A DNA stretch of 20,000 nucleotides, taken from IMG/VR virus record IMGVR_UViG_3300031760_000037; one strand, given 5' to 3'. The notes under the pieces were generated by a model. It saw only the letters and a list, made by a program, of their open reading frames with translations, did no database searches and was not told where the DNA came from. The position numbers were made by a program, and so were the translations under genes. The number at the start of each line of letters is the position of its first letter. The stretch's first letter is position 1. Below are positions 1 to 20,000 of the stretch, in pieces. Origin of the DNA: an uncultured virus (IMG/VR IMGVR_UViG_3300031760_000037). Lineage: Duplodnaviria; Heunggongvirae; Uroviricota; Caudoviricetes.

Positions 1-70
1 CAACCAATAGCCAATTGTTATTTGCAAGTGGATCAAAGTATTGTTCACTAATCGGTAGTCTCATCTTCAT
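1..70 (-). CDS. hypothetical protein, 5' part only (runs off window)
   Basis: ATG at 70 or 64 overlapping the stop of the 48-425 gene; MKMRLPISEQYFDPLANNNWLLV, open to the window edge. Confidence 0.5.
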   Translation of the reverse strand, partial: MKMRLPISEQYFDPLANNNWLLV

Positions 71-425
71 CATCTAACTCATATAAAATTTCATCTATCC
101 AATCTTCCACGTCACTGAAGTCACGTGGATAAATTGTTCAGTCTACATCATCAATATGATACCAATCATAATCTCAATCAACTTCACTCAATCTATTCTT
201 GAGTGTAAGTATTCACCAGTCTTGAAGTGTTTGTTTTATAAACTCTTCTATTCAGTCTGATGTCTCATAATAGTATGTATATGAGTCTAACTCATAATCA
301 TTGTCTGAGTTATAATCACATATATCTGACATTGCATCAGATATAATACTGTCTAAATCACAGTATGAATTTTTCAAAGCTGACTTATAGTCACGTAGCT
401 TTTCTATTAATTCTTGTTTATTCAT
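48..425 (-). CDS. highly acidic hypothetical protein, 125 aa
   Basis: ATG425..TAG48 with TGA=Gly; MNKQELIEKLRDYK...WIDEILYELDDEDETTD; about 37 D/E versus 9 K/R by manual count. Confidence 0.85.
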
Positions 426-702
426 CGTCTTCTGTAATACAATTTAAAACTCAATCACAATATAATTGTAATATGTATCTATTAAATGTGCTAATAATAA
501 GATTAGCATTATGTGGATCTGCATGTGCAAGTGCATGTCCTAAAGCATTCAAGAATGAACCTCAATATTTAATCCGTGCTTCTTGTATATCATAACGGCT
601 AAATCTAAGTTCATCTCTTTCTCATTCTTCATTCTCATATGAGAACACAGCTTCTTCTAATAAGTTAGAATAAGATAAATAACTATATAATTTTTCAATC
701 AT
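418..702 (-). CDS. conserved phage hypothetical protein, 94 aa
   Basis: ATG702..TAA418; contains KYGGSFLNALGHALAHADPHNANLII, resembling a common small phage protein motif (YGGSF...AD..N). Confidence 0.85.
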
Positions 703-749
703 ATTATTTTATGTTATCAAAATAAACCATAATCTTTAAAGGTCCTTTA

Positions 750-1253
750 TTACCCCTTGTTTGTTCATTCTGTTTCTTCCTTATGTAAAATAAAAGATTT
801 ATCAACAGGTATCTTCTTCATTACAACCTCTGTATAAAAGTCATAGTTATATGCCTTCCAGGTATAATCTGGATATTTGTAATCTTTGCTATAATCTCAT
901 TTATCATGTCTTTGTCTATTATAAGTTTCAAAACAATCAGTTGTAAATACAAAGTTTCAATATCTAAATTCAGAACATTCATCCCGATTTATACTTCCAC
1001 AATCTTTTAATTCATCTGAAAAATAATATTGCATTAGTTCAATAAAACTTTTTTTTGCTTTATTATAATCAGAATAAACTTCTGTAAAATTATTTCAGTC
1101 ATTCTCATCATATACTTGAACAGCATATATATATTCTATTCATTTCTTTTGTATCAAGTTATCTACATGTTTAACTATTTTATTTAGTTCATCATGTATT
1201 AATGTATCAGCATCACTGATAGGTTTTAATTCTGTATTATTATATTGTAACAT
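750..1253 (-). CDS. hypothetical protein, 167 aa
   Basis: ATG1253..TAA750, open when TGA=Gly; abuts upstream gene. Confidence 0.8.
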
Positions 1254-1254
1254 T

Positions 1255-1728
1255 TTATTCTAATCAATAAAAAGATAAAAGGTCATCGGCGAAACTACTA
1301 CCGAAGTCTCGTGAGTAATGCTCTCCTCACCAATATAAATGAAGTTCTGCTGTTCAATCTATTTCCCGAAATACACCTGGTCAACCTATTGTAATTGTCA
1401 ATTTATATATTGCATCATCTCTATCTAAGATTTCAGATGAGTCATACGGATCAACCTTCATTCGTTTCTCAATAGATAACAACTCATAGTAATTATCTAT
1501 TGCTTCGTTGATTCAGTCTCGATCTGTATTATATTCATCAACAACTTTACTTCAGTCTTCATATTCATTGTCTTCTTCATATACAACAAATTTTTCTACC
1601 TCATCTTCTCATAAAATTTCTTTAGCAATCTCAATACGTTCAACACTTTCTGGTGTCTCAGTATAATAATCATGCCATAATAATCGTGACTTTTTTTCAC
1701 GTTCAAAATACTCTTGTGTACTACTCAT
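1255..1728 (-). CDS. acidic conserved phage hypothetical protein, 157 aa
   Basis: ATG1728..TAA1255; C-terminal LTITIGGPGVF(W)EIDGTAELHLYWGG resembles the GGP..W...YWG phage family. Confidence 0.85.
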
Positions 1729-2062
1729 CTTTTTCTTTATTAAGATTTAAAACTTTGTTCTTAAAATGTTTATAAACAATTTCTAATCATAAAATGTAAT
1801 CGCGAACTTCTTCGTCGCTATCAAACATTATATCATCTTCAAGTTCATTAATCAAAACAATAGCTCATAATGTATCATCGTAATAGCTTAAGTATAAAGC
1901 TCATTCACCTTCTCAAGCATACGATACAAGTTCTTCAATATAAAAATCCATATTACCTTCAGTAGCCTTTTCAATAATATCAACAATTTTTGTTTGACTA
2001 ATTCTTGTCGGATAATGAAAGTCTTGATCGGTGATTACATTAAATAATTTTTCTTCGTTCAT
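1721..2062 (-). CDS. acidic hypothetical protein, 113 aa
   Basis: ATG2062..TAG1721, overlaps next gene start. Confidence 0.8.
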
Positions 2063-2081
2063 GTGAATATATAATAAAAAT

Positions 2082-2112
2082 AAAAAAGGCGAAACTAAAA
2101 TTGCCTCGCCTT
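2082..2112 (-). terminator. hairpin plus U-tract (terminator or leader attenuator)
   Basis: minus strand AAGGCGA-N13-TCGCCTT followed by TTTTATTTTT. Confidence 0.6.
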
Positions 2113-2114
2113 AT

Positions 2115-2144
2115 GGAAGTTTAAAATAAATATTTAATCAGGGG
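2115..2144 (-). promoter_or_regulatory. CCCCTG-box promoter-like motif, copy 1
   Basis: CCCCTG-N15-TAAACTTCC upstream of the ATG at 2062. Confidence 0.6.
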
Positions 2145-2151
2145 ATTTCTG

Positions 2152-2235
2152 TTACATAACTTCTTCTCTGATTAGTATGAACACTATTAATAATAGCATT
2201 CAGATAATTAATCTTATGAGTCGTTTGTTGCTCAT
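2152..2235 (-). CDS. small single-TM membrane peptide, 27 aa
   Basis: MSNK(W)LIRLIIGMLLLIVFILIREEVM; starts 3 nt after the previous stop. Confidence 0.55.
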
Positions 2236-2238
2236 CAA

Positions 2239-2784
2239 TTAATTTACAGTTGAATAAAATGCATTAGCAATACAGTTATAGTTTTTTAATAACCATACAT
2301 TAAATTTTCATTCTTGTTTAGAATGATTCAACTTCATAAATTTATCATACTGTTTATCTTCTTTAAGTCAATCAATAAACTGTTCATACAATGTATCTTC
2401 TATCTCTCGGTAGTTACCTTTATGTCAATTCCAGTGTAGAACTGGATCACTCCAGTCTCAATTATATTCCATGTATATTCCTGGAACTCATCTCCAGTTT
2501 GAGAATAGTTGAAGGACAAGTGTTGATAACCCTCAACTACTTAAGTCCATATCATAACAATAGTTACCATTAATCCATACCTCTATAACTTTGTTATGTC
2601 TATAAAGCATAATATTATAAATTCCAAATGAAGTAGTAACTTCTAAATCTATCTTCATTTCTCAAGATTGAAATTCGTCTGATTCAATCTTATCTAATAA
2701 CCATTGTGATACTTCAGGTACTGTATTAACATAATCTGTAGATATATCTACACGTCTTAAAAGTTCATAAGTAAATAGGTCCAT
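2239..2784 (-). CDS. conserved phage hypothetical protein, 181 aa
   Basis: ATG2784..TAA2239; WRGVPGIYMEYNGDWSDPVLHWNGHKGNY(W)EIED resembles a W.GVPGI...G.W.DP phage family. Confidence 0.85.
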
Positions 2785-2810
2785 GTTTAATAATTGTTTA
2801 AAATATAAAA

Positions 2811-3068
2811 TTAATATGAAGCTTCTTTTAATTCAAGCCTAAATTTCTCTAGTCTTTTTACAATCCTTAGATACATTCCTTCAAATAATTCTCGTCTAAG
2901 TTTTAATTGATCATCATATGAAAGCGTACCGCATTGTTCTTTAGCATACTCAAATCTTTCATCAAGTACTTTGAGTAACCCGCGGATACAATCGTCCGCA
3001 AGTTCTCATCAGTCTCAGTTATTTCATATAGCTATTTTTAAGAATTCTATTTCTTGTTCTTTAGTCAT
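2811..3068 (-). CDS. hypothetical protein, 85 aa
   Basis: ATG3068..TAA2811 with TGA=Gly. Confidence 0.8.
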
Positions 3069-3093
3069 GTCTATCAAAATAATTATATAAAAG

Positions 3094-3384
3094 TTATCAT
3101 TCATATGTAGGATAATCATCTACATATTTATCAAGTATTTCTGTAATATCAAAATATATTTCATCATCAAATTCTTCATATCATTCTCATCACCATTCCA
3201 TTTTAGATTTTGTATGATTCATATATTGTTTACAGCATCTCCATAAAGTTCATCAGTGGTCAAGCCACGATTTAACTTCTGTCGTTTCAATATAATCTTG
3301 TGCTTCGTATATAACAATTCTATATACTACAGATGATGCTGAATCTTGATGAGTTCAGCAATAAAATATTAAATCTTTTTGCAT
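3094..3384 (-). CDS. acidic hypothetical protein, 96 aa
   Basis: ATG3384..TAA3094 with TGA=Gly. Confidence 0.8.
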
Positions 3385-3385
3385 G

Positions 3386-3727
3386 TTATCAATTAAAGTT
3401 ATGAACTAAATCTTTTGCTTCTTCACTCTTGACATCATCAGCACTGATATCAAGTCAAGAACAAAAAGCATTTACATAAATACTATCTATTAATTTTTCT
3501 TTGTCGTCTTCATCATCCACATTATGATTTATTATATATCTAAATATCTCTCGGATGATTGAGTTAGTATAATCAGATGTTCTTATTTGTTTATCTTGAA
3601 GACTCTCAAAGAAATATGTTAGATCTAATTCAGAACAATCTACGTCTCGTTCTTCAATTAAATCATCTATATATTTTTGATCAAGTACAGGTATGATCAA
3701 GTCTCAATAAGTTATTATTCATTTCAT
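3386..3727 (-). CDS. acidic hypothetical protein, 113 aa
   Basis: extends track ORF 3455-3700 through TGA at both ends; ATG3727 overlaps the upstream TAA. Confidence 0.85.
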
Positions 3728-4047
3728 TATTTTCTGTATTTTAATTCAGTTAAAATCACCTCATCACTTTTTGGTGTTAATTGCAAATCTTTTTCTTCAA
3801 TATATTTTAATGTTGCAAATAAAAGTATTTCCATAAAAGATTTTGAATTTGCCGATTCTTTACACGCATCACGGAATGCTAACAACATTGTTATTCATTC
3901 GCGTGGGTTGTTTAAAATATTTGGTATTATTTTTTCTTCAAATATTTTTTGAACTTTTTCACTGTCAAATTCTTCTGTATCTCACAAGAACATGTTATAC
4001 ACTCCTGCAAGTTCTTCTGCTGTTTTTAACATTTTTTTACTAGTCAT
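3727..4047 (-). CDS. hypothetical protein, 106 aa
   Basis: ATG4047..TAA3727, TAATG coupling to the next gene. Confidence 0.8.
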
Positions 4048-4067
4048 GTTTATAATATAATTAAGAA

Positions 4068-4325
4068 TTAAATATGAGATTTAGGTTCTCGTTCCCGTTC
4101 TGGATCATCAGTTGATTTCTTTTGAAGTCAATCATAATCCAGATGCTGAGAATAAAAGTCAATAGTATACCATTCTGTTCATGCTGAATCACAATCATCA
4201 CATGTCCAATCATAGTATAAGTTATCTCATTCAACAGCTGACGCTGAATAAGTTAAGTTTTCACCTCAACATACAGGACATTCTCCTTGTAGGTCAAAGC
4301 TGTTTCTGTCTAATCTAATGCTCAT
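4068..4325 (-). CDS. zinc-ribbon protein, 85 aa
   Basis: GECPVCGGENLTY...YYDWTCDDCDSAGTEWY, two CxxC pairs; CPVC-TGA supports Gly. Confidence 0.85.
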
Positions 4326-4326
4326 C

Positions 4327-4557
4327 TTAAAGTGGTATAGAATTAAAAACTTTTTTTATTTCTTGTAATTTGTTTTCAAATGTGATATCATTCCGTCTAC
4401 TCTTTACAAGTCCTTCAACGATATCATCAAAAGTAATCTCTCCGTTTATAAACATATTCTTTACAAACTCTTCCATTTGTTCTGCTGTATATCCTTCATC
4501 ATACAGCTTTCTAAGTTCGTGTCTTATAAACACTTTCTTTTTTTCTTCTTGTTTCAT
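4327..4557 (-). CDS. hypothetical protein, 76 aa
   Basis: track ORF, ATG..TAA, fits the operon tiling. Confidence 0.8.
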   Translation of the reverse strand: MKQEEKKKVFIRHELRKLYDEGYTAEQMEEFVKNMFINGEITFDDIVEGLVKSRRNDITFENKLQEIKKVFNSIPL

Positions 4558-4575
4558 TTTGTATAATTTATAAAT

Positions 4576-4803
4576 CTAAAAGTTTTCATTAATAAATTTA
4601 GTTACTCGTTGCTTAGCATCTTCTAAAGATTCAAAGTCTTTTGGTGCTTCGCAATCTCCTTCTGGAAAATACAAGTTTGGATTATACACATACACTCTAT
4701 ACTCTCGTGTCTCTGGTTCATAATCCATAAGCATTGGTTCTATTGTAAACTTCCAATGTCTATACCATGCTGTATAATTTCATCATTCTTCTGTTCGTTC
4801 CAT
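4576..4803 (-). CDS. hypothetical protein, 75 aa
   Basis: ME(W)TEEGGNYTAWYRHWKFTIEP...FESLEDAKQ(W)VTKF; ATG4803..TAG4576. Confidence 0.85.
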
Positions 4804-4805
4804 GT

Positions 4806-5639
4806 TTATCATCTTAAAGATTTAAAAGTAATTTTATTCTTATCAAAATAAGAATGCACTCGTCAATAAACCTCATTAGGTGTATATCACCACGGTCCTT
4901 TTCTAGCACCGTCAACACCTAATCAAATTTCTTTTAAGTTAAGATTGAATGTCCAGTCTGAAGTCAATTCTGTTTCAACTCATCACGCTCATTCATATGG
5001 ACTAAATAAATATATAGCACTTCATTCTTTAACAGTCAATCTTCTAGCTTTCATAATCTCAATCATGTCGTGAAGGTTTCAATTATAATGTATGCATATT
5101 CATAATTGTCACCACGCTCAATCATATATCTCTCTCATATGAGTTGAACGTTCAGTCCGTCATTGAGATTTCTTAAGTGATCTAAAATATTTTAAAGGAT
5201 ATCTATGCCTATCATATATATCATCAGGTATCCACATTGTCTTTTCAGGATCAGTCAATAAATAAAAGTTATAAGTTATCCTATTAAAATGTTCTATGTT
5301 TGCATCAAACTTGTCGCAATCATACATTGCTTCTCGTAATGCTGAATGCAAATCTTCTTCGTCTTCAAGTTCAGGATGTTCATCTACGAATGGTTCAAAG
5401 AATGTTCTATAGAATTGGTCTTGCTCATACTGGTCATACCAATCTTTACAACATATGAAATCATATACGTATGATTCTGGATCAAGATAAGTTCATTCGT
5501 TGATTTGTTCTTCAACATAATCCAGTAACTTTCTTACTGTATCATCTTGAAAATAATCATCATAGTCTCGGTATAGAATAAGCTTATCCTGCTTCTCCAT
5601 TCGTTCTTTACAGATAGATTTTAATTCTTCTCGTTTCAT
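4806..5639 (-). CDS. conserved phage hypothetical protein, 277 aa
   Basis: ATG5639..TAA4806, includes track ORF 5160-5351; C-terminal LFSPYEGAGG...GYTPNEVYG. Confidence 0.85.
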
Positions 5640-5950
5640 TTTATTGCATTGTTATAATCTAAAACTAGGCGCTCAACGCCATGTGGTATTCATAGCATAC
5701 GGATTCACCACTCTTCCCGTATGTTTACGTCGGAAGTTTCTGTATCTCATTTAGTAAAATAAAGATATCCGTCAAACGTATCCCGACTAACGTCGTCTGG
5801 ATATTCAACTACCAATACTGATAAGTATGGATAGTCTTCTTCATCAAAGTAACGCTTGATGTAGCGTACCATTGGTCTGAAGTATTCTTCAGTCCAATCA
5901 AGCACTGTCTCAACCGTGTGCTTGTTCATTAAAATCTGTAGTGTCTTCAT
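5621..5950 (-). CDS. hypothetical protein, 109 aa
   Basis: track ORF 5747-5950 extended through TGA to TAA5621. Confidence 0.8.
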
Positions 5951-5992
5951 GTATAATACATTAAAATAAATAAAATGAATAATACACTTATT

Positions 5993-6023
5993 GGAAACTT
6001 AGTATGAAATAAATAACCAGGGG
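5993..6023 (-). promoter_or_regulatory. CCCCTG-box promoter-like motif, copy 2
   Basis: CCCCTG-N16-TAAGTTTCC upstream of the ATG at 5950. Confidence 0.65.
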
Positions 6024-6024
6024 G

Positions 6025-6099
6025 ACTAGGTATGAACGCCTGGTCTGTTCGGTCTTGTACTAGGTATGAACGCCTGGTCTGTTTAGTCTTGTACCAGGT
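6025..6099. repeat. 34-bp tandem repeat, about 2.2 copies
   Basis: ACTAGGTATGAACGCCTGGTCTGTTCGGTCTTGT (6025-6058), ACTAGGTATGAACGCCTGGTCTGTTTAGTCTTGT (6059-6092), ACCAGGT. Confidence 0.9.
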
Positions 6100-6113
6100 C
6101 GTATGTTTAGAAT

Positions 6114-6146
6114 AAAAAAAAGAGTATCACGTTTGTGATACTCTTT
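6114..6146 (-). terminator. intrinsic terminator
   Basis: perfect 12-bp stem AAAGAGTATCAC/GTGATACTCTTT with a 4-nt loop and T-run, just after the 6154 stop. Confidence 0.85.
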
Positions 6147-6153
6147 CAAAGGT

Positions 6154-7092
6154 TTATCTGTTTCTAATGTTAAACGTTGATGGGTTTATCTCATATCCAT
6201 AAATGTCTGAAAGACATACAACCATATTTGGTTCTCGTGCACCAGATGTCTCAGGTGAACTAGTTGCATAACGCATACCATTATCATTAGCTTCTTCACA
6301 GTGATGCCAATTAGATAAGCAACCTAACGTTTGTTTCTTTCATAAGTTCTTATTAACTAATGTTCTACCTATTGCATCTAAACTTGCTCATAGATTTGAA
6401 TATGATTGTCACCTTGGATTACTATCTGTGTTTCAAACATTTCAGATGTTCTTAACTCAAGCTCAGTTCTTTCCTCACGAAGTCTCAGCTATTGTTATGC
6501 ATCATATTACTCATTCAGTAATACCATAATGTTCTTCAACTTCTCGTATTACTTTAGGATCAAGTCAATAGTCTGACATTAATTCTTTAAATCTTTCGTG
6601 AGATGTAGTTCAAGTTAACTCTGGCATCTCTTGGTTTGAACCGTCTTCAGTTAGCTTTCCTGGATACCATTCAGTTTCAGGGAATGGTCAATCGTATTCG
6701 CATCAAGCTCAAGCAACTAAACCTATGAATCATTCTTTAGTTTGAATTCATAATTTTATATTCTCAAGTTCTTGTTCAATCAATGCATCGCATTGTGTCT
6801 TAGGTTCTTCTGTTTCTTTTCATAAAATATTATTGATGAAAATCTCAGTCGCTTCTTCATTTAATCTTATAGCTTCTGAGTTTAAATAAAAGTATTCCAT
6901 TTCACGTTCATAAATTTCTCAAGATAATACTTCTTGTCTTTCAGTAATATAGGCAAGCCTTGTAGATATCTCATCAAGCTTTTGTAAATCAAGTTGTCTA
7001 GTAATAGGTTTGTTAGTTAGTAATCATCAGATGATGTATCAAGCGATAGCTAATACGATAAGTGATAGAATAATTTTAATAGTTTGTTTCAT
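6154..7092 (-). CDS. membrane-anchored lysozyme-like (glucosaminidase/GH73-like) peptidoglycan hydrolase, 312 aa
   Basis: N-terminal TM (IKIILSLIVLAIAGYIIGGLL), coiled-coil linker, then HYGITEGVIGCITIAETSGGKNG..KNIGNVGN...RYATSS....A(W)EPN. Confidence 0.7.
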
Positions 7093-7138
7093 AGTTTATA
7101 AGTATAAATAATAAAAGATAGGGGAAGGGGGAAGACAA

Positions 7139-7468
7139 CTAATTGTTGTCTTCTTCATCCTCAAGCATAAAACAATCATTCCATTTTTCAAGGATAGATT
7201 GCATATCTGATTTGTTTCAGAACAAATCATCAAAGCTGATATTGAATGCTTCATATTCAGCTCTGTCTTTCTCATAGATTGCTTCACAGTTTACACGGAA
7301 GTCTTCTCTCATTAGTTCATTTGGTCTGTGATTATTTAAATAAGTCATCACTTGCCAATAGAACTTTCACTTTAATCACTCTCTGTAATTTATACGATAG
7401 CATTCTCTATCGTATTCATAGTCCTCCATATTAGGAACTATAACGTCTTCGTCGTAGATGGTTGGCAT
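7139..7468 (-). CDS. acidic hypothetical protein, 109 aa
   Basis: ATG7468..TAG7139 with TGA=Gly. Confidence 0.8.
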
Positions 7469-7478
7469 TTTGCTGTAA

Positions 7479-7685
7479 TTAATCACAAATAAAAAAGTCA
7501 CTTGTATCAAACAAGTCATAAAGTTCTGGATGTCTGTTAAGATTAGATAATATGTATTCTTCTAATCTAACAATCTTGCAATCCAATTCTCACAAGTCAT
7601 CAAGTGCTTGTCACTTCCTTTCTTTTAGAAGTTCTGCGTGTGCCTGGAAACTAAGTTCTAGGTCTTTGAAAAAGTTCTCTGACAT
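7479..7685 (-). CDS. hypothetical protein, 68 aa
   Basis: ATG7685..TAA7479 with TGA=Gly. Confidence 0.75.
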
Positions 7686-7717
7686 TTTAATTGTTGGTAA
7701 ATAAATATAAAATAACC

Positions 7718-7739
7718 GAAGCTACTATTCGGTAGCTTC
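7718..7739 (-). terminator. stem-loop over a stop codon (terminator or processing site)
   Basis: 8-bp stem GAAGCTAC/GTAGCTTC spanning TAG7725, weak U-tract. Confidence 0.45.
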
Positions 7740-8069
7740 AGTATTAGTCTTAATATAAAAACAATCCCGTCAATCTATGTCTCAAGTGATAACACACTCT
7801 GGTATATTATCTTTAATCCATAGCTTGGCTTCTCTTGTGCTATCAAAACACATTATAAAATCATTGTCAATGATGATAGCTTCGTGGCCTGGAAGTCTTC
7901 CAAAGATTTCACTATCTGGTATCTCTGGATGATTCTCAGATAAATCACAGAACGGTCAATATTCTGCTGGATCAGTATCTACCAATCAGAAGTAGGTTCT
8001 GTTGTTGTTTACGTAATTTGATTTGAACAGTTCTAAAATGTACTCTTTATTAAAAGCTTCTAGTTTCAT
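7725..8069 (-). CDS. hypothetical protein, 114 aa
   Basis: ATG8069..TAG7725 with TGA=Gly. Confidence 0.8.
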
Positions 8070-8097
8070 TTGTAGTGTTTTAAGATGATAATAAAAA

Positions 8098-8139
8098 GTC
8101 CGCTTATCGTTACGGGATAACCGATTATTTTCTACGGAC
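8098..8139 (-). ncRNA. putative structured 5'-leader RNA motif, copy A
   Basis: GUCCG-UAGAAAAAUAAUCGG-UUAUC-CCGUAAC-GAUAA-G-CGGAC then UUUUUAUUAU; homologous to 11558-11603. Confidence 0.6.
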
Positions 8140-8146
8140 ATTAAAC

Positions 8147-8177
8147 GGATGATTAAAAATTAAAAGCTATCCAGGGG
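8147..8177 (-). promoter_or_regulatory. CCCCTG-box promoter-like motif, copy 3
   Basis: CCCCTG-N16-TAATCATCC, directly downstream of a terminator. Confidence 0.65.
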
Positions 8178-8188
8178 ATAAGGTTCAT

Positions 8189-8221
8189 TAAAAAAAAGAG
8201 AATGATTATTACCATTCTCTT
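8189..8221 (-). terminator. intrinsic terminator
   Basis: 9-bp stem AAGAGAATG/CATTCTCTT plus a long T-run, overlapping TAA8209. Confidence 0.8.
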
Positions 8222-8436
8222 ATATAAGTATTGATAAGATAATCATATTCACATTGAGTGAATGGATTATCCTGTGCTCTGCATTTTATAATTGTAGAAT
8301 AGATTTCTCCAAATCATTCCTTTCTTTGATACACAACGTCATAATAATATATATCATTGTGTTCATAAAATCTAATCTTTATGTATCAACTATTACAGTT
8401 TCACATAAAAGATTTAATAAGTCTAGTGTTTTTCAA
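8209..8436 (-). CDS. hypothetical protein, about 65-75 aa
   Basis: TTG8436 or ATG8406 to TAA8209, open with TGA=Gly; lies between a promoter motif and a terminator. Confidence 0.65.
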
Positions 8437-8469
8437 AATAATATTATTAGATAATAAAAGTGTGAATAG

Positions 8470-9372
8470 CTAGAAACGCCATTCTCATTCTTCGGAAGAT
8501 GAAGAATTATTATCTATTCAGGGGGTAGCATTAAAGCTAGTCATTCAGTCTTCTCAATATAAAGGACATTGTTCTCTTAATGGACACCGTTTACAAGCAA
8601 GACATTTCTTTGGGTTGAACTCGTCGTTATCATATGCCTTTATATATTCAGTTAGTAAATGATAGATCAGTCTTTCACTGTCTTCATATTTATAATTCAA
8701 TTCTATTATCTGTAGCTGTGGTGTTTTTTGTTTGGTCCAAACGAAATAAGTAAAGTCAAAATCATCTCTCTTTTTCAGCTGTGGAAGGTTAGAAGTTATG
8801 CGTCGCATCCGTGGATAAAGTCTTCGTTGAAGTTTAAAATCAGGTTCATTCTTTCACCACTTTGACTTCGCTGTTTTACAGTCTCAGATAGTATAATCAC
8901 TGAACACTCGGTCTGCTGTTCAAGTTAAATATATCTCGTGATATGGTGGAAGGCTAACGTTGTTAGCACTTTGATCCGCGTCCATAAGTATACGCAAGGT
9001 CATACGTTTCTGTGTATATAATGGGTAATGAGTTTTATATTTAGAATCAGCTGGTAAGTCTTTCCATAGCTTTGCGAACTGGAAAAACATTTGGTATTCA
9101 GGATGTTCAGTTGAGTTTCATAATACACGTAGCACTTCATCTCATAATTTATCTCAGTATTGATAAGCTGTCATAAGTTGTTCAGCTATATCTCAGGTAT
9201 AAAAAGCATTACGTCAATTCTCTGATGGTTTAGATTTATCAAACTTATAACGGTAAGGACAAGTCATAAATCATTCCAATCCTGTTGGATGTAGCTCGTG
9301 TGTTGTTGGCGTTGCGGTTGTATTTATATTATGTGTACGCCAATCTATTGTAGGTATTATAATGTTATCCAT
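8470..9372 (-). CDS. Cas4-like / RecB-type PD-(D/E)xK exonuclease, 300 aa
   Basis: LHPTGLEGFMTCPYRY; LTGTAD(W)VFSDYTIGDCKT; LQ(W)RLY; C-terminal CLACK(W)CPLREQC, giving the split-Cys Fe-S pattern. Confidence 0.85.
8494..8524 (-). promoter_or_regulatory. CCCCTG-box promoter-like motif, copy 4 (inside the nuclease gene 3' end)
   Basis: CCCCTG-N16-TCATCTTCC upstream of the 8436 gene. Confidence 0.5.
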
Positions 9373-10507
9373 TTGAATTGTGATGGTTAGGTGATAAAGG
9401 TTTTATATTTTTTAGTGGTGTTCTATTAGTGATATTAAAGTCTTCAATCAGCTGTGCTTTAAATGTCCCGTCTGGTTGTTTGATATTAAGTGAACGTACG
9501 TGCTGATTAAATCTGATAGGTTCAGGTGTGGATGATGATATTGTTGTAGGTGTGGATGGTGCGCTGATAGGTGCACCATACTTAATTATATTTTTCAGTC
9601 TTTTAATTCCAGAACGGATTTGAATAGGTGAGAATTCATTATAATTATATTTCATAAAGTGTCTTATAAGATGCGTTTCTGAAACTCTATTAAAGTCTAT
9701 GTATTTATAGATGTCTCTATCTACCAGTGGAACTTTGATATCTTTCAAGTGGTAAGTTGGATGGTCTTTATCTATTGGTGGAATCTCAAGGAAGGTTATA
9801 TTATCTGATACTAGATTATGTATAACTGGTATTTCAGATAATGAATAGCTTGGTCAATAATCTTTAGTAAACTTTTGTGGTAAGTCTTTAAATCTATATG
9901 TCCAAAGTTTAGCTTCACAATCTAAAGGTCTATTAGTCCGATCAAGTTTAGTATATGAATTAGTATGTGGATAATAGTTAGCATAATTCTGTCGTGGGTT
10001 TTTACGTTTTATATCTACGATAAAGTTTATATTATCTACACTGTAATCAATGTCTCTAACTAATTCATTTGCTTCTGTGCAAGGAATTAAGAACGGACAA
10101 TTATCTAAGTATCTTCACTGCAATGTCCGTTGTTCATATGTAGGGAACGGGAATGGTAGTAATATAAAGTTAGTGGATGGTGAGATACATATTGTTTCTG
10201 CTGTAGGAAACAATAATGTCAGGTCCTTTAATGGTCGAAAATAATTTGAGTATTGTTTGTCAAATAGAATGGAATAATATTCAACTAGCAAGGATACTGT
10301 TTGCTTAGATTTTTTTTGTGGTCAAAACGAACTGGGTTTTGTGGTTGTATTTTGTTTGAAAAAATTTTTCAGTTTAGTTATGTTTGGAGTGGCATACATT
10401 TTTAGTCGCTCCATATTTTTTTTGTCTTGATAGAATTGATATGGTTTCATTAAGTGTTTCGTATTGATATAAAATAGGTGGGAACTGGATGTTGTTATCC
10501 ATAGCAT
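9365..10507 (-). CDS. hypothetical protein, 380 aa, Pro/Thr-rich
   Basis: joins track ORFs 10322-10507 and 9365-9748 in one frame through TGA codons; overlaps the nuclease start. Confidence 0.8.
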
Positions 10508-10645
10508 ATAGATATGTTTTCTAATTGCAAGCTAAAGTGTCTTGAGAAGTCTCGTGTAGGGGTTATTTCAGATGAGACCTGGCAAGTATATATGTATATT
10601 ATATATCTATATATATATTATAAGTATCGTAGAAATATTATTATT

Positions 10646-10673
10646 ATTATATATAGTAAATACGAAATGTCAA
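10646..10673 (-). promoter_or_regulatory. sigma70-type promoter
   Basis: exact TTGACA-N16-TATAAT pointing at the 10507 gene. Confidence 0.7.
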
Positions 10674-10719
10674 ATTTAAACATTTGTTTAAAACATAGGT
10701 GAGAACTGGTATATCTATG

Positions 10720-10856
10720 TTGACATATAGGAAGAGAGTATTACTTATCTTGACAATATATTAAAAAAAATTACTAATATATATGTAAAAATAGATAATA
10801 CTGTATATACGTATTGACATATAGATAATAAAAAGTACATAATGTATTGACATATA
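10720..10856 (+). repeat. four TTGACA(TATA) boxes in a very AT-rich non-coding block
   Basis: TTGACATATAG 10720, TTGACAATATA 10750, TTGACATATAG 10814, TTGACATATAT 10847. Confidence 0.7.
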
Positions 10857-10994
10857 TACAAACGTATGTAGCTCAATAAATTAATTATTATATTATACCT
10901 ATTTTTTATATATAGGTATATAAAATTGCATATGCTACGCCAGGTCCAATAAGGGAAATACCCTACACTAAAAATATCAAACATATTAATGACA

Positions 10995-11031
10995 AGGTAT
11001 GAACGTCCGTGTGTTAGGTCTCTTGTACCAG
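10995..11031. repeat. dispersed copy of the 6025-6099 repeat unit
   Basis: AGGTATGAACG-N15-TCTTGTACCAG versus AGGTATGAACG-N14-TCTTGTACCAG at 6062-6097. Confidence 0.75.
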
Positions 11032-11065
11032 TTTCCAAATGTCAAGTCCTAACAAGTTACATAGC

Positions 11066-11096
11066 AAAAGGGACACAAGTCAAGCTTGTGTCCCTT
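11066..11096 (-). terminator. intrinsic terminator
   Basis: perfect 12-bp stem AAGGGACACAAG/CTTGTGTCCCTT, 4 nt after TAG11101. Confidence 0.85.
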
Positions 11097-11100
11097 AGGT

Positions 11101-11232
11101 CTAACCTATGATGATGAACTCAGAACGGTCTAGGGTTCTAACCACTCATTTGTGGTTGATGAATTTCCATAGTCCGTCTCTGCACCTTGTGATGCGAATC
11201 AAGTTCCCGTCTTTTAACTTAGCGATATACAT
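11101..11232 (-). CDS. small basic hypothetical protein, 43 aa
   Basis: MYIAKLKDGNLIRITRCRDGLWKFINHKGVVRTLDRSEFIIIG followed by a terminator. Confidence 0.7.
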
Positions 11233-11292
11233 TTTGTTTGTGTAAATATAAAAGGTAAAATGTCAAGTGGATACGAAAAAAAGCTACACTCC

Positions 11293-11532
11293 CTAAGCGG
11301 GAATGTAGCTGTAGTTAACTTCCTTGATAAAATCGTGGAAGTAAACTGTACCGCTCTTATAATTGAAGATACGATACATTGGTCTTTTGTTCTGCCAAAC
11401 TGTATACTCTGTATACTTTTCAGCTTCCTTTACTTGAGATGCGTTTTTCTTCGCAAACTCTAAAGCCTTGATTGCTTGCTCCTTAGTCAAGACTTTCTTA
11501 GTAAAATTTCTAGTGTTTTGTGTAGTAGCCAT
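11293..11532 (-). CDS. basic hypothetical protein, 79 aa
   Basis: track ORF, ATG..TAG, preceded by the promoter motif and leader RNA. Confidence 0.8.
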   Translation of the reverse strand: MATTQNTRNFTKKVLTKEQAIKALEFAKKNASQVKEAEKYTEYTVWQNKRPMYRIFNYKSGTVYFHDFIKEVNYSYIPA

Positions 11533-11557
11533 TTTCGTAAAAAAACAGAATAATAAA

Positions 11558-11603
11558 AAGCCTGGCTATCCTACGGGACAAACCGATTTCTTTCACCAGG
11601 CTT
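11558..11603 (-). ncRNA. putative structured 5'-leader RNA motif, copy B
   Basis: AAGCCUGG-UGAAAGAAAUCGGU-UUGUC-CCGUAG-GAUAG-CCAGGCUU then UUUAUUAU. Confidence 0.6.
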
Positions 11604-11642
11604 GTGTGTGTAGTAGATTTGTGTGTAGAACCTACATTAAAT

Positions 11643-11673
11643 GGTAGCTTAAATCTTTCCGCATATCCAGGGG
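11643..11673 (-). promoter_or_regulatory. CCCCTG-box promoter-like motif, copy 5
   Basis: CCCCTG-N16-TAAGCTACC; shares CCCCTGGATA and CC(R)TTTAATGT with copy 3. Confidence 0.65.
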
Positions 11674-11674
11674 T

Positions 11675-11830
11675 TTATAAGCAAACTCATAGTGTATACT
11701 CAATGAGTACAAATATGAGAATACCTATAAAACAAGTTGATAGCATAAATACTGCTTGCTCGTCTGACTTGAACACTACCATTCAAGCACAGATTAAACA
11801 AGCAAGCACGAATAATAATAGTGTAACCAT
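11675..11830 (-). CDS. small two-TM membrane protein, 51 aa
   Basis: MVTLLLFVLACLICAGMVVFKSDEQAVFMLSTCFIGILIFVLIEYTLGVCL. Confidence 0.7.
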
Positions 11831-11864
11831 TCTTCATTCAATAGGATATAAAACTACACACTTC

Positions 11865-11895
11865 GGTTGCTTGAAAATTATTATTCATTCAGGGG
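11865..11895 (-). promoter_or_regulatory. CCCCTG-box promoter-like motif, copy 6
   Basis: CCCCTG-N16-CAAGCAACC upstream of the ATG at 11830. Confidence 0.55.
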
Positions 11896-12020
11896 TTCTT
11901 ACTAGTGGCTACTGGCTTGTACCTGTTGTTAAAAGCTACACACTTGTACCTGTCTTATACATTATGATCTTATTTATTACTATAGTCTGCTCCGCAGAAT
12001 ACAGCGTATATATAGAGTAT

Positions 12021-13758: not shown

Positions 13759-14067
13759 ATGAAAGAACTATCAAAGAAAGATATTGTAAAATATCTTCGT
13801 GATGAGGAATTCGTCCTCACTAAAAAAGATGCAAACATGATTGTAGATGCAGTATTTGATTATGTAAAATCTACACTCCTAACTCATTTAAAATCAGGAG
13901 AAGATGTGAGATTATCTATAAAATGATTCGGATCATTCTTCACCTACACAAAGCCAGGACAGAAGAAGTATAATCCACATACACGTTCTTACCAGAACGC
14001 ACCTACAAGAAGAATTGTAAAATTTAAGAGATCTAAATTTTTATCTCATCCACAAGCTAAATACTAA
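13759..14067 (+). CDS. hup: HU/IHF-family DNA-binding protein, 102 aa
   Basis: LSKKDIV...LTKKDANMIVDAVFDYV...GEDVRLSIKGFGSF...YNPHT...RRIVKFKRSK. Confidence 0.9.
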
Positions 14068-17039
14068 TGGCACTAACACGAGCAGAATTAGAAGGAAATG
14101 CAGAAGAGCGTATGACTCATGAAGTTGACGAGAATGGAGAGTCACTTCCAGAAGAATGACAGTTCGACTCGAGAATAGAACGGGTTGTATCTATGAATTC
14201 TGCAAATCCAAAAGCTCAAGATGTGTCATCACCAGAAGCAAGAACCCAGAGATACGCAAAACGTTTTCCCTGGGTTCTAAAGAACTGGAAAAGAAAACAA
14301 GTGATGTATGACTGAGACCAGTCATTCATTAACGAAACTGTAGAACCATATTATGCTTCACGCTGGTATGAACAAAATAAAATCAACAAGAGAGATGTTA
14401 AAGAAATGTTCTTTGGTGATTTTGAGGTTTTTACTTTGTTCATGCAGGCAAGTCCTACTCCTAACTCCAATGCTCCCACTCTTCCTCAATGAAAGAATGT
14501 GACAACAGAGTTTGCAGAATTTCTATGACTGCTAACATCTCAACGTATCTTAAAAGAAAAAAACTTTAGAGTGTGGCAAACTATACTTCAAATCTACGAT
14601 CTCTATGAAATAGAGAATCCAGATCCAATACCAAACATCCATTTTTTTAAACATAAAACTAATTTAGAAAAAAGAAGGATTGCATCAAATAGACCTAAAA
14701 CTATTCATGATGTAATATCAAAACATCCAGTAGATACTTGAAGAATAACATCACCTGAAATACTTGAAGCAAAAGATGAAAAGCTAATTGAATTCTTAAA
14801 GAATAATGCACGTGACTTATATAAAATCTATGAAAAAGCTTCGGCTATTCCAGATGATGCACCTATGCACAAAAAGGATTTGAAGCTTGCATCCTACGAG
14901 AGAATCATAAAATTATTTAATGAAAGATTCTCAACTCCTGGTTCAAGACTGGATTGAGCTAACACTGACTATATTCCACCAGAGGAAGATGTCAATGCAC
15001 TGGATCGAGAAGATGCTCCACTTAGAGAAGCAGCAAACTATCCAGCAATATCATGAATGAGTATCACTGAAATTCAGGAACTCTGTGCAATGAAAGATTT
15101 TCTAGAATGAAGATTTAAGTTTAAACCACAGATATTAAAATGAAAAGTTATTCAAGAACCATATCAAAATGTGGAACTATCAACACAAGTTGTTACAGAT
15201 CCTAAATCTCCTAACTATAATAACCCTATTAAAATATTCTGACATCATACTTCATCAGTACGTTTTGCTATGTTCTGAGAAGAAAAATATTACAAGCGTA
15301 TTAGACCTTGACAGACATTGCAACCATGGCAATGGATAGCAAAGCTATACAAAGGTTGGGTTACAACTGTAGTTGCTCCACGTAGATGATGAAAATCTTA
15401 CCGAGCGATTGACGAAGCTGTCGAAATGTTTACATCTGACACACAGGAAAGAAGTCGTCCAATCCGTGTATTGTTTGTCTGAATCAACACGAAGAAGCTA
15501 AAGACAGTTATCAAGTACCTTCTCTCATTTACAAAGCAATTCACTGCTGCATGATATTTCGATCGGGAAGCATCTAAGAATATAATGCACTATCGTAAAA
15601 AAGAATCAAATAAGAAAGCTACCGAAGCTGATGACCTTTGAACTATCGAATTCATCTGATCAAAAGATGAAGATGCATGAGTCTGAGATTATGCTGACCT
15701 CATCATCATAGATGAGTGTGAAAGAATTGATGAGAATGTGTGGGAAGATATCATGCCTATCATCACTAACGAATGAGCAAGATGTATTCTAATATCAACA
15801 CTAAATAAGAATTCTCAAAAGACATGGTTCTATCAACAACTTGTGCAAGGTGAGACTGAGGAATTACAGCGCAATCTTACAAACCAAGATGTAGTAACAG
15901 TAATCTATGAGAAGTGGAACAAACGGGTTCAGCCTGTAATTGACAAAGTAGAAGCTATTGAAAAAGAGACAGGTAAATCTGTACCGTTTGATGAATGGAT
16001 TAACTGGATAGATATTGATGCAATGAGTTCTGATATGAGATATGCAAGGCAGTGGGTATGATTAAGATTCACTGGTGAAGATACTGATCTGAAAACAGAG
16101 CAGGAGAAAGCCTATGCAAGAGATAGGTTAAGATGAACTAAAGCATATTATCCAGAATGGCGGGCTATCTTTCCAGAAGATACAGGAGTTTATGATTATG
16201 AGAGTTCAATAAAAGACAAGAACTATTTTGAATGAAAGCAATATAACTATGTAGTCCTAGCTTATGATCCTGCTGAAAGTAAAGATAAGGCAGCATTGGT
16301 GTATATGTGATATGATGACATCGCAAGGAAGATTGAAGTCTTCCACACAGAAAAACTACCTAACAACTATACTTATCATGGACCATTCATCCAAAGAGCA
16401 TTACAGGATTTACAACATAGAGTAGATCGTTCTACTCTTGCTGAATGAGTTTGAGCTGAACAAAGAGTATTCTTTGCATACGACTTTAACTGAGTTGGAC
16501 AATGACTAGAACCATTCTTCCAAGAATGTAAAGTGAGAATAGATTTGAAAGTGAGATTCACTGGACAGTGAGCAATAACTAAGAAATGAATAAACCACAA
16601 TGTTCCAAAAGAGTTATTGGTTAATATGCTTCAGAACACAATGGATCATGGAGCATTGGTTATCAATCAAGAATGTCTAGAGTTCATCGAAGAACTTGAC
16701 CACTACAAATCTTATTATAATCCTGACACATGAAATACAAAGTACCAAGCAGAAGCAGGAGCTAGTGATGACTTCGTATCTGCTGCAATGATAGGTACTT
16801 ACTTTATCCTTGAATATATGTGAGAAAAATATAATATAACAAAAAACGAGATAGAGCAGGCTATTGATCCAGAAATGATAACTCCATCTGTAGCTAATAT
16901 GTTCGATGAAGTAGAAAGAATTGTTATGCAAGGAGTTAACAATTGAAAAACTGTTCAACAAGTTATTGATGAATATAATGGTCGCTCCCAACGAAACAAT
17001 TTGAAAAGGAAAGATGTTTTATCTCAATTCTGATATTAA
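14067..17039 (+). CDS. terL: terminase large subunit with long N-terminal extension, 990 aa
   Basis: LQPWQ Q-motif, Walker A VAPRRGGKSY, Walker B DLIIIDECE, coupling motif LISTLN, RNase H-like nuclease VLAYDPAESKD, YDFNGVGQG, DDFVSA; no TAA/TAG in frame. Confidence 0.93.
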
Positions 17040-17042
17040 CGA

Positions 17043-20000
17043 ATGGTTACCGTTGACGAAATAAAAAAACAAGTAGAAGCGACACATCCAGAATGGAGTG
17101 ATGAAATTAAACAACAATATGCTGAAAGAACAGCAGAACGTATAAATCAATATAATGAGCCAGAGGTATGAGCTGGAGATCCATGAGATGATAGCTTCGT
17201 TTGAGCTTTGTCTGCTAGAGCAACACAAGCTTGACAAGATATATCTCAACGGGCTGACGATTTAATATCAGATGAAGATGCTAAAAAAAGTTCATGGAAC
17301 TGATTTCTTGATCAAGCTGCAAATGTTTGATGAAGCTTAGTTTGATGAACAGTTAGAGCATTTTGAAGTATGCCAAAGTTCTGATGGGATGCTGTATGAT
17401 TAGCAACTTGAAGAACAAATTTTTGATTCTGAGATACTAAAAAAAGAGCAGAAGAATTAGAAGCTCAATGAGTATGAAGTGTTTGAGCTTGGATGACTGC
17501 AATCGAAGAATGAGCACAAAAAGATAATCTAACTTGAAGTTCAGATAATCTATTTGCTCAATGAGTAGATCAGTTAATTAATAATCCTCTTATATTCAAA
17601 GGAGTTTGAAGTTTATTAAAATGAGCTGCTTCTACAATTAGAGGAGTATCTAAAATATGAAAAGTTTGAAACGTTATTTCAAAGGCTGAGAAAGGTGTTT
17701 GAGCTGTGGCTAGTGTTGCTGATGATGCAACTAAAGCTGCAAGTAAATGAACATCATTTTTCCAGACAGTAAAAAACTGAGCAAAGAATGTTGTGAATAA
17801 AGTTGCTGAGAATAAAATCATTAATAATAAAGCAACAAGATGGATATGAGAAAAGGCTTTTAATTTTGCCTCATGATCATTAAAAGCTGTTACTCCAATT
17901 ATAGATTTCTGAACTCCAATAGTGAGATGAATAAACGCTGCTACATCATGATTTAAAGCTTCTGGTATTTGAGCTGCTATAAGAAATTGAGTATCTGAAA
18001 CTTTAGCATCTTGACTAGAAACTGCAGGAAAGGCTATAGCTAATCCTTATTCATATAGAATGCCAAGAATCTGGAGTTATGATCAAGCACAAAAACTTAT
18101 GTGAGATGCTGATGTTGCAAGACAAAGAGCATCAGACTTACAAGAATTTTACGATGAACATGGTTATTCTCTATTAAATGCTACATCGTTTGAAGATAAT
18201 GAAGCACTTAAAAAGTGGTATGATGAACAAGGAATTCCTGAAGAAAAAAGATTGTCTCTAGATGAAGCAAAGATGGAATTATGAAAGTCTGGAGATTCTT
18301 TTGTTAATAATCTTTTAGAGTGAACAAAAGATTTATTACAGTTCGCAGATCCATGGTCATATAACCAATGATATTATAATGCTGTACAAACTTCTCAGAG
18401 CTGAGTATATAATGAAGTAGCTACTTCTCCAAGATGAAGATTAAGAACATCTTGAGGATTAAGCATTGATTTAAATGACTGAACTATTACAGATGCAGAA
18501 TGAAACACAATCAATGCTGATGATTTAACTGATGAGCAGAGAGAAGATTTCGCTGCTGCTGTAGCTAAAATTCAAACATGAGATTATTCTGATGTTGAAA
18601 TAGAATGAGCAACTCCTGCTACTGAAGCTGATGAAACAGTTAATATCACTGGATTAAATCAAGATAATGAGAATGCTATCGCTATCGAAAGCATTGCTCA
18701 GAATTGAATGTTGACACAAAAGACAGTGTCTAAATTAATGAAATGAAATAAATCTGCTGATGCTGTATATATCACTACTCAATTAAATGAAACTTGAAAA
18801 CAGTTTGCTAAACAATTAGTAAACTTATATACTGCTGATGAATTAAACAAGAATCCATCATTACAAGCTAAAATCAATGAACAACTTTGAGCATATCAAA
18901 GATGGTTAAACGCTACTGCTGAAGTTATAAACGATGCTAGTTCTGATGTCTATTGACAAGCAAGTCGTATTCATTGAGTATATAGATTTAGAGATGCAAT
19001 GTCTCAAGCTATTTGACTATTATCAGATAGAGATGTCGCATTAATAAATTCTAATATCTATAGACAAGCTATTGACTATAACAACAGTTTGGAAGAATGA
19101 TTTGACCAAACATGGATGAAAGCAGCAACAGACGTTGTCCAGAAAACAGATGACTGGATTGTAAATACTTTATTAAGAGATGATGCTGCTGATTTAACTA
19201 ACGTTCTTTGACTTTCATGACTTTGAGATACTGCAGTAAATCCAAATGTTGTATGAGTTGCTTCTATGCTATGAGATGTTAGATCAGCTGTAGCTAATAA
19301 TGCTGCATACTTAATTGATACTGCTGTTGTTAATTTCTTGAATAACAACTTAGTTGAATGATATCTTTGAAAGGTCATTAATAAAGGTATGAATAAAATT
19401 ATGCCAGCAAAAATATTGGCTAATAAGCAGTATAATTTTATGAAATGATTCACGTCAGAATTTTCATCAGAACCATTAGAAAACTTCCTTGATGCTATAT
19501 CTATGGTAGAAAGTTCTGATACTAGTTATGACTTTATGCCATGATTACTAATATGAGCATTACAATGATGAATGGCTGGATATGCTTGAGCTAAATCAAA
19601 TTATTCATCTATCAATGACTATTTCTCTGATCCAAAGAATAGAACTGATATCTTAAATAGAATGTGAATTGATATCAGCAAAATTCCTGATCCAAAGAAA
19701 AAGGCATTAGCATTAGAAGTGACAAATAAAATGTTTGACAATGTTGTCGATGTTATGAAAAATGCTTATGCTAATTCAAACTATTGAGTTGAGAATCTAG
19801 CTCAATGATTAGCAATCACTATGATTAATAATGACATGGCTGAATATGCTACTGACATATTAAATCAAGCTCAAGAATATATTAATCAACAACAAACTAT
19901 TGCTAATGAAACTAATAATTGAGAATGGACTAATCAACAAATTGTTGACATATTTTGAACAACAGAAAATTTTGATGCTTATCAAAAAGGTGAGAACTTC
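17043..20000 (+). CDS. very large Gly/Ala-rich protein, probably virion internal/ejection protein (partial, >985 aa)
   Basis: ATG17043, open to the window end with TGA=Gly; amphipathic G/A-rich segments such as AANVGGSLVGGTVRAFG and FMPGLLIGALQGGMAGYAG; function is inferred. Confidence 0.8.

Follow-up and report, generated by a model that had tools for sequence, protein, structure and literature searches.

A conserved 42-nt element in the leaders of two phage genes

We analysed a stretch of 20,000 nucleotides (the window) from the uncultured virus IMGVR_UViG_3300031760_000037, a rumen phage that reads TGA as glycine. Its subject here is a 42-nt RNA element that is present twice on the minus strand, each time between a promoter-like motif and a small gene. 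The following features surround the two copies:

8098..8139, minus strand: element copy 1, 42 nt; outer stem (P1) of 8139-8134 with 8103-8098 around a 30-nt interior
11558..11603, minus strand: element copy 2, with the homologous 42-nt core at 11601-11560; the outer A-U pair is not conserved
8088..8097, minus strand: UUUUUAUUAU after copy 1, a terminator-like tail and also a generic start-codon box (-28 to -19)
11550..11559, minus strand: following copy 2, UUUUUAUUAU, whose two initial U's are able to pair with the AA preceding the stem
8139..8177, minus strand: promoter-like motif before copy 1, CCCCTG-RWTR-N18-WCCR-N4-RYG; P1 starts with the G of its ATG
11635..11673, minus strand: promoter-like motif before copy 2; its ATG is immediately followed by TAG
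11613..11635, minus strand: additional hairpin of 7 bp that separates copy 2 from its motif, without a counterpart at copy 1
7725..8069, minus strand: gene after copy 1, 114 amino acids (aa; genetic code 25), without a family, conserved in related phages
11293..11532, minus strand: gene after copy 2, 79 aa, basic, without a family or clear fold

An earlier note, made from the letters alone, had described the two copies as an unrecognised structured leader RNA, possibly an attenuator or a riboswitch-like element. When the sequence was read again, the sequences, coordinates and strand of both copies were as given there, including their position between a CCCCTG motif (8177 and 11673) and an ATG (8069 and 11532). 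Each copy is exactly 42 nt long, from G to C. The distance to the start codon is kept, with 28 nt between the end of the stem and the ATG in copy 1 and 25 nt in copy 2, while the distance between motif and element varies (0 vs 34 nt). An independent repeat search also recovered the pair (D8, 45 nt, 71%).

In the ungapped register of the two 42-mers, 6 of the 12 bases of P1 are common to both copies and all six pairs are kept. Three of these pairs are changed on both sides (U-A/C-G, C-G/U-A and U-G/G-C), so that the outer stems indeed differ in sequence and still pair. The shuffle figure for this stem comparison (17/500) describes effectively two sequences and is not a probability. The conserved interior reads GAAA-N2-AAUCGGUU-N-UCCCGUA-N2-GAUA in copy 1. 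The two 30-nt interiors align with a score of 14, which none of 20,000 shuffles reached (mean -3.8, maximum 9); the likeness of the unpaired parts, to which the note had pointed, is thus far beyond chance. In copy 2, conservation does not extend to the outermost A-U pair, as the A is a T in the metagenome locus L045 and in contigs of three of four sequencing runs. With a model built from the two copies, no third copy was found in the window (next best hit 13.7 bits).

The element in related phages

The gene after copy 1 has 34 cluster relatives, and 162 members were examined for upstream-extended N-termini. Gene callers had run some of these homologs upstream through the leader, which yielded 20 distinct extensions after exclusion of one chimeric protein; this peptide read-through reveals leaders only if they are in frame and free of stops. 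In P0101, a ribosomal protein S16-like N-terminus is fused to the 114-aa phage family, and this protein is probably an assembly chimera.

Four of the 20 distinct leaders, from five proteins (P0152, P0169, P0201/P0205 and P0226), read like the element and represent about three independent types besides copy 2. The element is unchanged in P0152; P0169 and P0226 force C3U and C24U, and P0201 and P0205 force changes at positions 3, 6, 24, 36 and 39. Although four positions of the stem region (3, 6, 36 and 39) are changed in P0201/P0205, every P1 pair can still form: C-G is the sole possibility for pair 6-37, and pair 4-39 requires a change on both sides. Four divergent proteins, 62-71% identical in their main part, retain 8 of 9 residues in the interior and 1 of 6 in the tail, and by the read-through peptides the interior of the element is more conserved than its flanks or the downstream protein. 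TCCGTA and TATATT variants are found among the relatives. The leader of P0226 can also hold the full promoter-like motif in the register of the window, albeit only with an 18-nt spacer and with V in place of M.

A scan of metagenome DNA returned 49 matches with a single true ortholog, L045, which is identical to copy 2 over 42/42 nt. As L045 and the window diverge at only 66 of 1505 positions overall, the lack of changes within the element is not significant. The search pattern required CCCGTA and therefore could not find the TCCGTA variant of the relatives. L047 (1 mismatch in 24) was rejected as eukaryote-like DNA without the stem, L024 because it lies inside an 870-nt open reading frame (ORF), and the remaining matches were judged to be chance. 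Further homologs, which the note had suggested looking for, were thus found in L045 and in four of the 20 read-through leaders. These homologs, the compatible stem changes, an interior better conserved than its flanks and the absence of a match in Rfam (see below) support the claim of a conserved, structured and unrecognised leader element that is not a plain terminator. Sequence comparison confirmed that the element is real and conserved and that it is, as far as pairing can be predicted, a structured leader.

Predicted folding

Folding z-scores of tight windows were -1.93 for copy 1 and -3.00 for copy 2; with flanks included they were unremarkable (0.01 and -0.49). The plus strand folds nearly as well as the minus strand (-8.9 vs -9.9 and -15.2 vs -17.2 kcal/mol), and therefore the strand assignment comes from context. 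In ensemble folding, both copies share the same two competing inner helices. The inner 5-bp hairpin proposed in the note is not the favoured fold, with a probability of 0.18 in copy 1 and 0.25-0.27 in copy 2. Pairing of the bulge CGG with the loop CCG, which it had offered as a pseudoknot or alternative fold, reaches 0.63 and 0.69, respectively, in a program that cannot score pseudoknots. The changes inside the inner helix are A-to-G or C-to-U, so that G-U pairs remain. A kink-turn reading was rejected by inspection, as the extra bases are on the wrong side. One low-depth contig of run X5 joins across 11613-11666, that is, across the promoter spacer and first hairpin of the second cassette, and this may be a variant or an error.

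A repeated promoter-like motif and the cassette layout

CCCCTG occurs six times on the minus strand of positions 1-12000 (shuffle mean 0.4, maximum 3 in 1000 shuffles) and never on the plus strand. All six occurrences extend to a 39-bp motif, CCCCTG-RWTR-N17/18-WCCR-N4-RYG, a consensus derived from these same six copies. Besides the two element cassettes, the motif is present at:

11857..11895, minus strand: promoter-like sister motif without the element
8486..8524, minus strand: sister motif inside the 3' end of a PD-(D/E)XK gene, followed by a plain hairpin and start box
5985..6023, minus strand: sister motif without a stable hairpin
2107..2144, minus strand: sister motif with a 17-nt spacer; the slot of the element is taken here by a plain hairpin with its U-run (2112-2077)

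The order observed is therefore a phage-specific 39-bp motif, a hairpin slot, a U-rich start box and the gene. Four of the six motif copies are followed by a hairpin and a U-rich box, and in the cassettes at 2144 and 8524 the place that the element has elsewhere is taken by a short plain hairpin. Of the 16 read-through leaders without the core, most read as plain hairpins or hairpins of another kind. Six of them can accommodate WCCR-N4-RYG with a U-rich box following 17-19 nt later; by the reading of their residues, these would carry a plain 6-8-bp hairpin between motif and box. The spacers of the two element cassettes have 8 of 18 bases in common.

The motif at 8177 directly follows a plain terminator (8221-8196), as expected of a promoter. 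Moreover, a contig of run X7 retains 8031-8177 and replaces 8178-8290, so conservation stops at the motif and places a conserved edge there. From this position we infer that the CCCCTG motif is a promoter; with CCCCTG at about -36, transcription would start at the purine of RYG. Of the 'promoter motif' named in the note, the repeated minus-strand motif is thus borne out, and its promoter role is suggested by where it lies. Across 141 Absconditabacterales genomes the motif is at chance level (15 matches vs 13 for the control), which argues that it is not a general host promoter and points to phage-encoded machinery.

Two cassettes end in a start codon that is immediately followed by TAG, namely ATG TAG (11637-11632) and GTG TAG (11859-11854) on the minus strand, and the others have frames of 8 and 13 codons. 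A second motif, GTACAAG, was found five times and on the minus strand only (11949, 11922, 11028, 6094 and 6060), in three cases with CGTTCATAC 22-23 nt further on. Immediately ahead of a CCCCTG motif, two of its copies make up a tandem repeat of 34 nt (6025-6092). GTACAAG could represent regulator sites, a second class of promoter or iterons.

The U-run coincides with a start-codon box

In both copies, 7 of the 8 nt after the 6-7-bp stem are T, and the U-run begins at -28 (copy 1) or -27 (copy 2) relative to the start codon. A GC-rich stem directly followed by a U-run is a feature of intrinsic terminators, but their short loop (3-8 nt) is replaced here by the 30-nt interior. In addition, TTTT[AG] begins 20-30 nt ahead of 21 of 30 start codons in the window (background 6%) and is found in neighbouring intervals at 4 and 7 of the same starts; the box was defined on the same 30 picked starts in which it was counted. 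Three of the nine starts without it have a nearby in-frame ATG that does have the box. In host loci (a subset of L072-L169), 33 of 95 ORFs are preceded by the box (background 8%). SR1 genomes are listed as Shine-Dalgarno-scarce in PMC10783764. TTTT[AG] is thus likely to be a non-Shine-Dalgarno initiation signal of code-25 bacteria within the candidate phyla radiation (CPR) and of their phages. The earlier note had taken the U-tract as a sign of a terminator or antiterminator, an argument that is weakened since the box precedes 21 of 30 starts.

Database, host-genome and literature searches

With Rfam 15, no match up to E 5 was obtained at either copy, in agreement with the claim that the element belongs to no recognised family; the six matches elsewhere in the window at this threshold were all below the gathering score. 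Three scans of IMG/VR with the core gave 0, 22 and 3 matches, of which all 22 and 3 were rejected as chance (coding or unrelated context, no enclosing stem), and a scan for the cassette gave none.

The core pattern occurs twice in the 141 host-order genomes, compared to once in the control, and no homolog was found in them by pattern or model, these genomes being incomplete and possibly not including the true host. Model R1 found only short plain hairpins in them, the best scoring 31 bits compared to 69-83 bits for the true copies. The best host matches have nearly the same stems and tails as the element and lie mostly near gene ends, so that the element looks like a host terminator with an oversized loop, although these matches were selected by a model built on the element. 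Comparison of the window DNA with the 141 genomes gave short weak matches only, none of them at the element. Neither three SR1 rRNA loci nor the remainder of the window shared words with the element that were longer than in shuffles. A 10-nt complementarity of copy 2 to a stretch of 16S rRNA was also at shuffle level and was rejected.

No paper was found that contains two of four core 10-mers, and the literature searched held no description of the element or the motif. A catalogue of viral structured RNAs, partially covered here by its supplements 3, 5 and 6, had no match in these (PMC10690425). We regard the element as a new candidate RNA motif that sits in a phage cassette of a known kind.

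Downstream genes, phage and host

The two downstream proteins are unrelated to each other. An in-frame ATG at 8141 could add 24 residues to the 114-aa protein, and a plain terminator (11310-11282) follows the 79-aa gene. Their folds are predicted with confidence (predicted local distance difference test, pLDDT, 93 for the 114-aa and 87 for the 79-aa protein), and neither had a clear match in a fold search (best Z 5.3 and 5.6) or any match in BFVD at E 0.001. Protein-anchored locus searches found no relatives in IMG/VR or INPHARED and none among at least 80 candidates from GTDB contigs. The family of the 114-aa gene was not found in 401 genomes of the class, with one borderline match that contains stops.

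Stop-free frames of at least 300 nt cover 81% of the window when TGA is read through. Genetic code table 11 (17%) and read-through of TAG (29%) were rejected on the same measure. With TGA as glycine, the P-loop of the terminase reads PRRGGKS, which indicates code 25, and the likely host is therefore an Absconditabacteria or Gracilibacteria cell, as follows from the code and the part of PMC10746230 available. Positions 1-11830 carry small genes on the minus strand, and from 12247 on the genes are on the plus strand and encode, among others, a terminase-like protein of 990 aa and HU. For the terminase, 39 relatives were found, of which several lie on contigs of 70-78 kb. The sequencing runs that contain the stretch are for the most part from bovine, sheep and goat gut.

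In 4 of the 141 host-order genomes there are distant matches to the terminase that contain in-frame TGA (L114/L118 on G042:C33, L115, L116 and L117), and these support that host range. The 990-aa terminase-like protein (14067-17039) is without a Pfam match and without a relative in INPHARED, and the ORF after it (17043-20000), which has no family, leaves the window at more than 985 aa. Over two genes at 8470-10507 (minus strand) the GC skew is opposite to that of the other minus-strand genes, and the 380-aa gene in this region has only three TGA codons; this module is possibly of other origin. Next to it lies a long AT-rich intergenic stretch (10510-11290) with 45-nt inverted arms (10596-10640 and 10882-10926) and a perfect sigma70 consensus at 10673-10646, a possible origin or promoter for the host polymerase.

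A possible RNA switch and alternative explanations

We propose, with a probability of roughly 0.4, that the element acts in cis, as an RNA switch of the 5' leader, that it is read by a trans-acting factor, and that it occupies the hairpin slot of a cassette resembling the promoter early stem-loops (PeSLs) of T4-type phages. Two early-type transcription units of the phage would carry this switch, and their RNA would start near the purine of RYG. In a first fold, stacking of the inner helix on P1 would produce a hairpin of 10-11 bp that has a bulge of 13-14 nt and immediately precedes UUUUUAUU; this structure could terminate transcription. In a second fold, CGG would pair with CCG and the inner helix would be lost, leaving a 6-bp stem under a large internal loop that should terminate poorly. 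The factor would select between the folds by binding to the conserved bases. That the fold so set controls read-through is a tentative suggestion, and that it controls access to the adjacent start box is a more doubtful one. The factor is most likely a phage-encoded RNA-binding protein. The note had left the choice between ligand and protein sensing undecided; we favour a protein. None of the tests points to a small-molecule ligand, the downstream proteins being unrelated and without a family or clear fold.

Several observations weigh against such a switch. The U-run is explained as a generic start box, so no terminator is needed to account for it, and a terminator scan of the window called neither copy. 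If the slot held efficient terminators, the cassettes with plain hairpins would block their own genes; the slot may thus only provide a stabilising 5' hairpin. In the read-throughs, residues fix only some of the bases, so that most pairs can, rather than must, form. The element is optional, since 16 of the 20 distinct leaders of the same gene do without its core. Support for the inner helix is weak, as it consists of three transitions, each of which had even odds of keeping the pair, and its terminal pair 20-36 is broken in P0201/P0205. Finally, no candidate binding protein was found in the 20 kb seen of a genome of about 75 kb.

The conserved interior might instead act as DNA. The cassette hairpin would then be an ordinary one whose loop contains either a repressor operator or an internal promoter's -35-like half (CCCGTA-N16/17-TATTAT). 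CCCGTA does resemble CCCCTG, and in the two copies TATTAT follows it at distances of 17 and 16 nt; in other cassettes the slot is filled by plain hairpins, and both strands fold alike. Nevertheless, we consider this unlikely: there is no clean palindrome, the spacing from CGG to CCG is off by one base between the copies, and the relatives read TCCGTA and TATATT. A 30-nt loop would, moreover, only weaken a generic hairpin, which leaves no reason to nest a site there. About equally unlikely is that each copy, taken from its promoter up to the U-run (about 52 or 85 nt), encodes a small RNA that works in trans as a decoy or mimic, such as one of a CRISPR repeat or antitoxin RNA, directed for instance against a host defence protein. 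Motif, stem and U-run would make a complete small unit, and the copies precede unrelated genes and are conserved in interior sequence; yet neither model R1 in the 141 incomplete genomes nor the words shared with the SR1 rRNA loci and the rest of the window revealed a counterpart, and the fixed distance to the start codon suggests action in cis. A compact riboswitch for a ligand or ion, in which bulge and loop close a small pseudoknot on the ligand and the stem with its U-run serves as expression platform, would agree with the size and layout of small aptamers, the conserved unpaired purines, the two competing helices and the adjoining U-run. We rate it slightly lower still, as it has no match in Rfam and no copy in the candidate host genomes, the downstream genes reveal no metabolic link, and the pseudoknot helix would be just 3 bp.

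It is improbable that the copies are generic hairpins without further function that resemble each other through recent duplication or conversion of a cassette. Cassettes do appear shuffled, with many leader types before one gene, and the element is optional, but recent copying would not produce an interior that is conserved amid a diverged stem, spacer (8/18) and tail, and this explanation is largely refuted. Very little speaks for a conserved peptide, in which the ATG at 8141 would start a 24-residue extension or leader peptide whose translation unwinds the stem. This ATG is in frame and has TTTTA 24 nt upstream, and ENNRL.RND is kept in every element-bearing read-through; in-frame cases are, however, the only ones that this method makes visible, and copy 2 keeps the bases and not the peptide, with ATG-TAG at that place, where P0226 has V and the cassette at 2144 has GCG. 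Just as remote is processing of the leader by a self-cleaving or nuclease-guiding RNA: small ribozymes do have a compact conserved core that a variable stem closes, but no Rfam ribozyme family matched up to E 5 and no evidence speaks for it.

Comparison with known systems

The cassettes are similar to PeSL cassettes, in which a repeated intergenic promoter motif, a stem-loop and a translation signal are combined among small ORFan genes, and they show indirect hints of cassette exchange (different leaders before one gene and the conservation boundary of X7 at 8177). As far as the available parts of PMC2839356 and PMC4122927 describe them, PeSLs have sigma70-like boxes and a Shine-Dalgarno sequence, and their stem-loop lies mostly between the -35 and -10 or over the -10. 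In contrast, the motif found here is based on CCCCTG without sigma70-like -35/-10 boxes, the start signal is a TTTT[AG] box in G-poor leaders without Shine-Dalgarno, the hairpin follows the motif, and there is a conserved 30-nt insert of a kind not described in the part of PMC2839356 available. As sigma70 and Shine-Dalgarno features are absent, the cassette was not classed as a PeSL.

Intrinsic terminators of Absconditabacterales likewise have a GC-rich stem followed by a TTTTTATTAT-like tail, and one of them, L139, matches copy 1 in its GTCCG/CGGAC arms and its tail. Their loops are short, though, and none of the 13 best host matches holds both core words, whereas the element follows a promoter-like motif and encloses a conserved 30-nt interior. 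The RAT (ribonucleic antiterminator) sites of BglG/LicT, nut/boxB of phage lambda, put of HK022 and the RegA and gp32 operators of T4 are short leader RNAs with conserved unpaired bases that are read by trans-acting factors. The element resembles them in having conserved unpaired bases adjoining a terminator or start site, but not in sequence, as judged by Rfam. The preQ1-I, fluoride and guanidine-IV riboswitches are small pseudoknots that act on a terminator. With these the element shares its size, a possible loop-bulge pseudoknot and the adjoining U-run; unlike them, it has no match in Rfam, no host copies and no recognised ligand-related genes.

To our knowledge, almost nothing is known about gene control in the phages of code-25 CPR bacteria. 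Promoters or leaders are not mentioned in the available part of PMC10746230, which is dedicated to these phages. The locus offers three testable signals: a phage-specific promoter-like motif, a start box that probably replaces Shine-Dalgarno and a new conserved RNA motif. The plain hairpins in the same slot are natural controls, and 42 nt is short enough for direct probing in vitro. A protein-binding element would constitute a new RNA operator of phages, and a ligand-binding one a riboswitch class native to phages. In the latter, unlikely case, a 42-nt ligand-sensing switch would be native to phages of reduced CPR bacteria, absent from their hosts and exchangeable as a cassette module, and the phage would tune its early genes to the state of a host that is almost without metabolism of its own.

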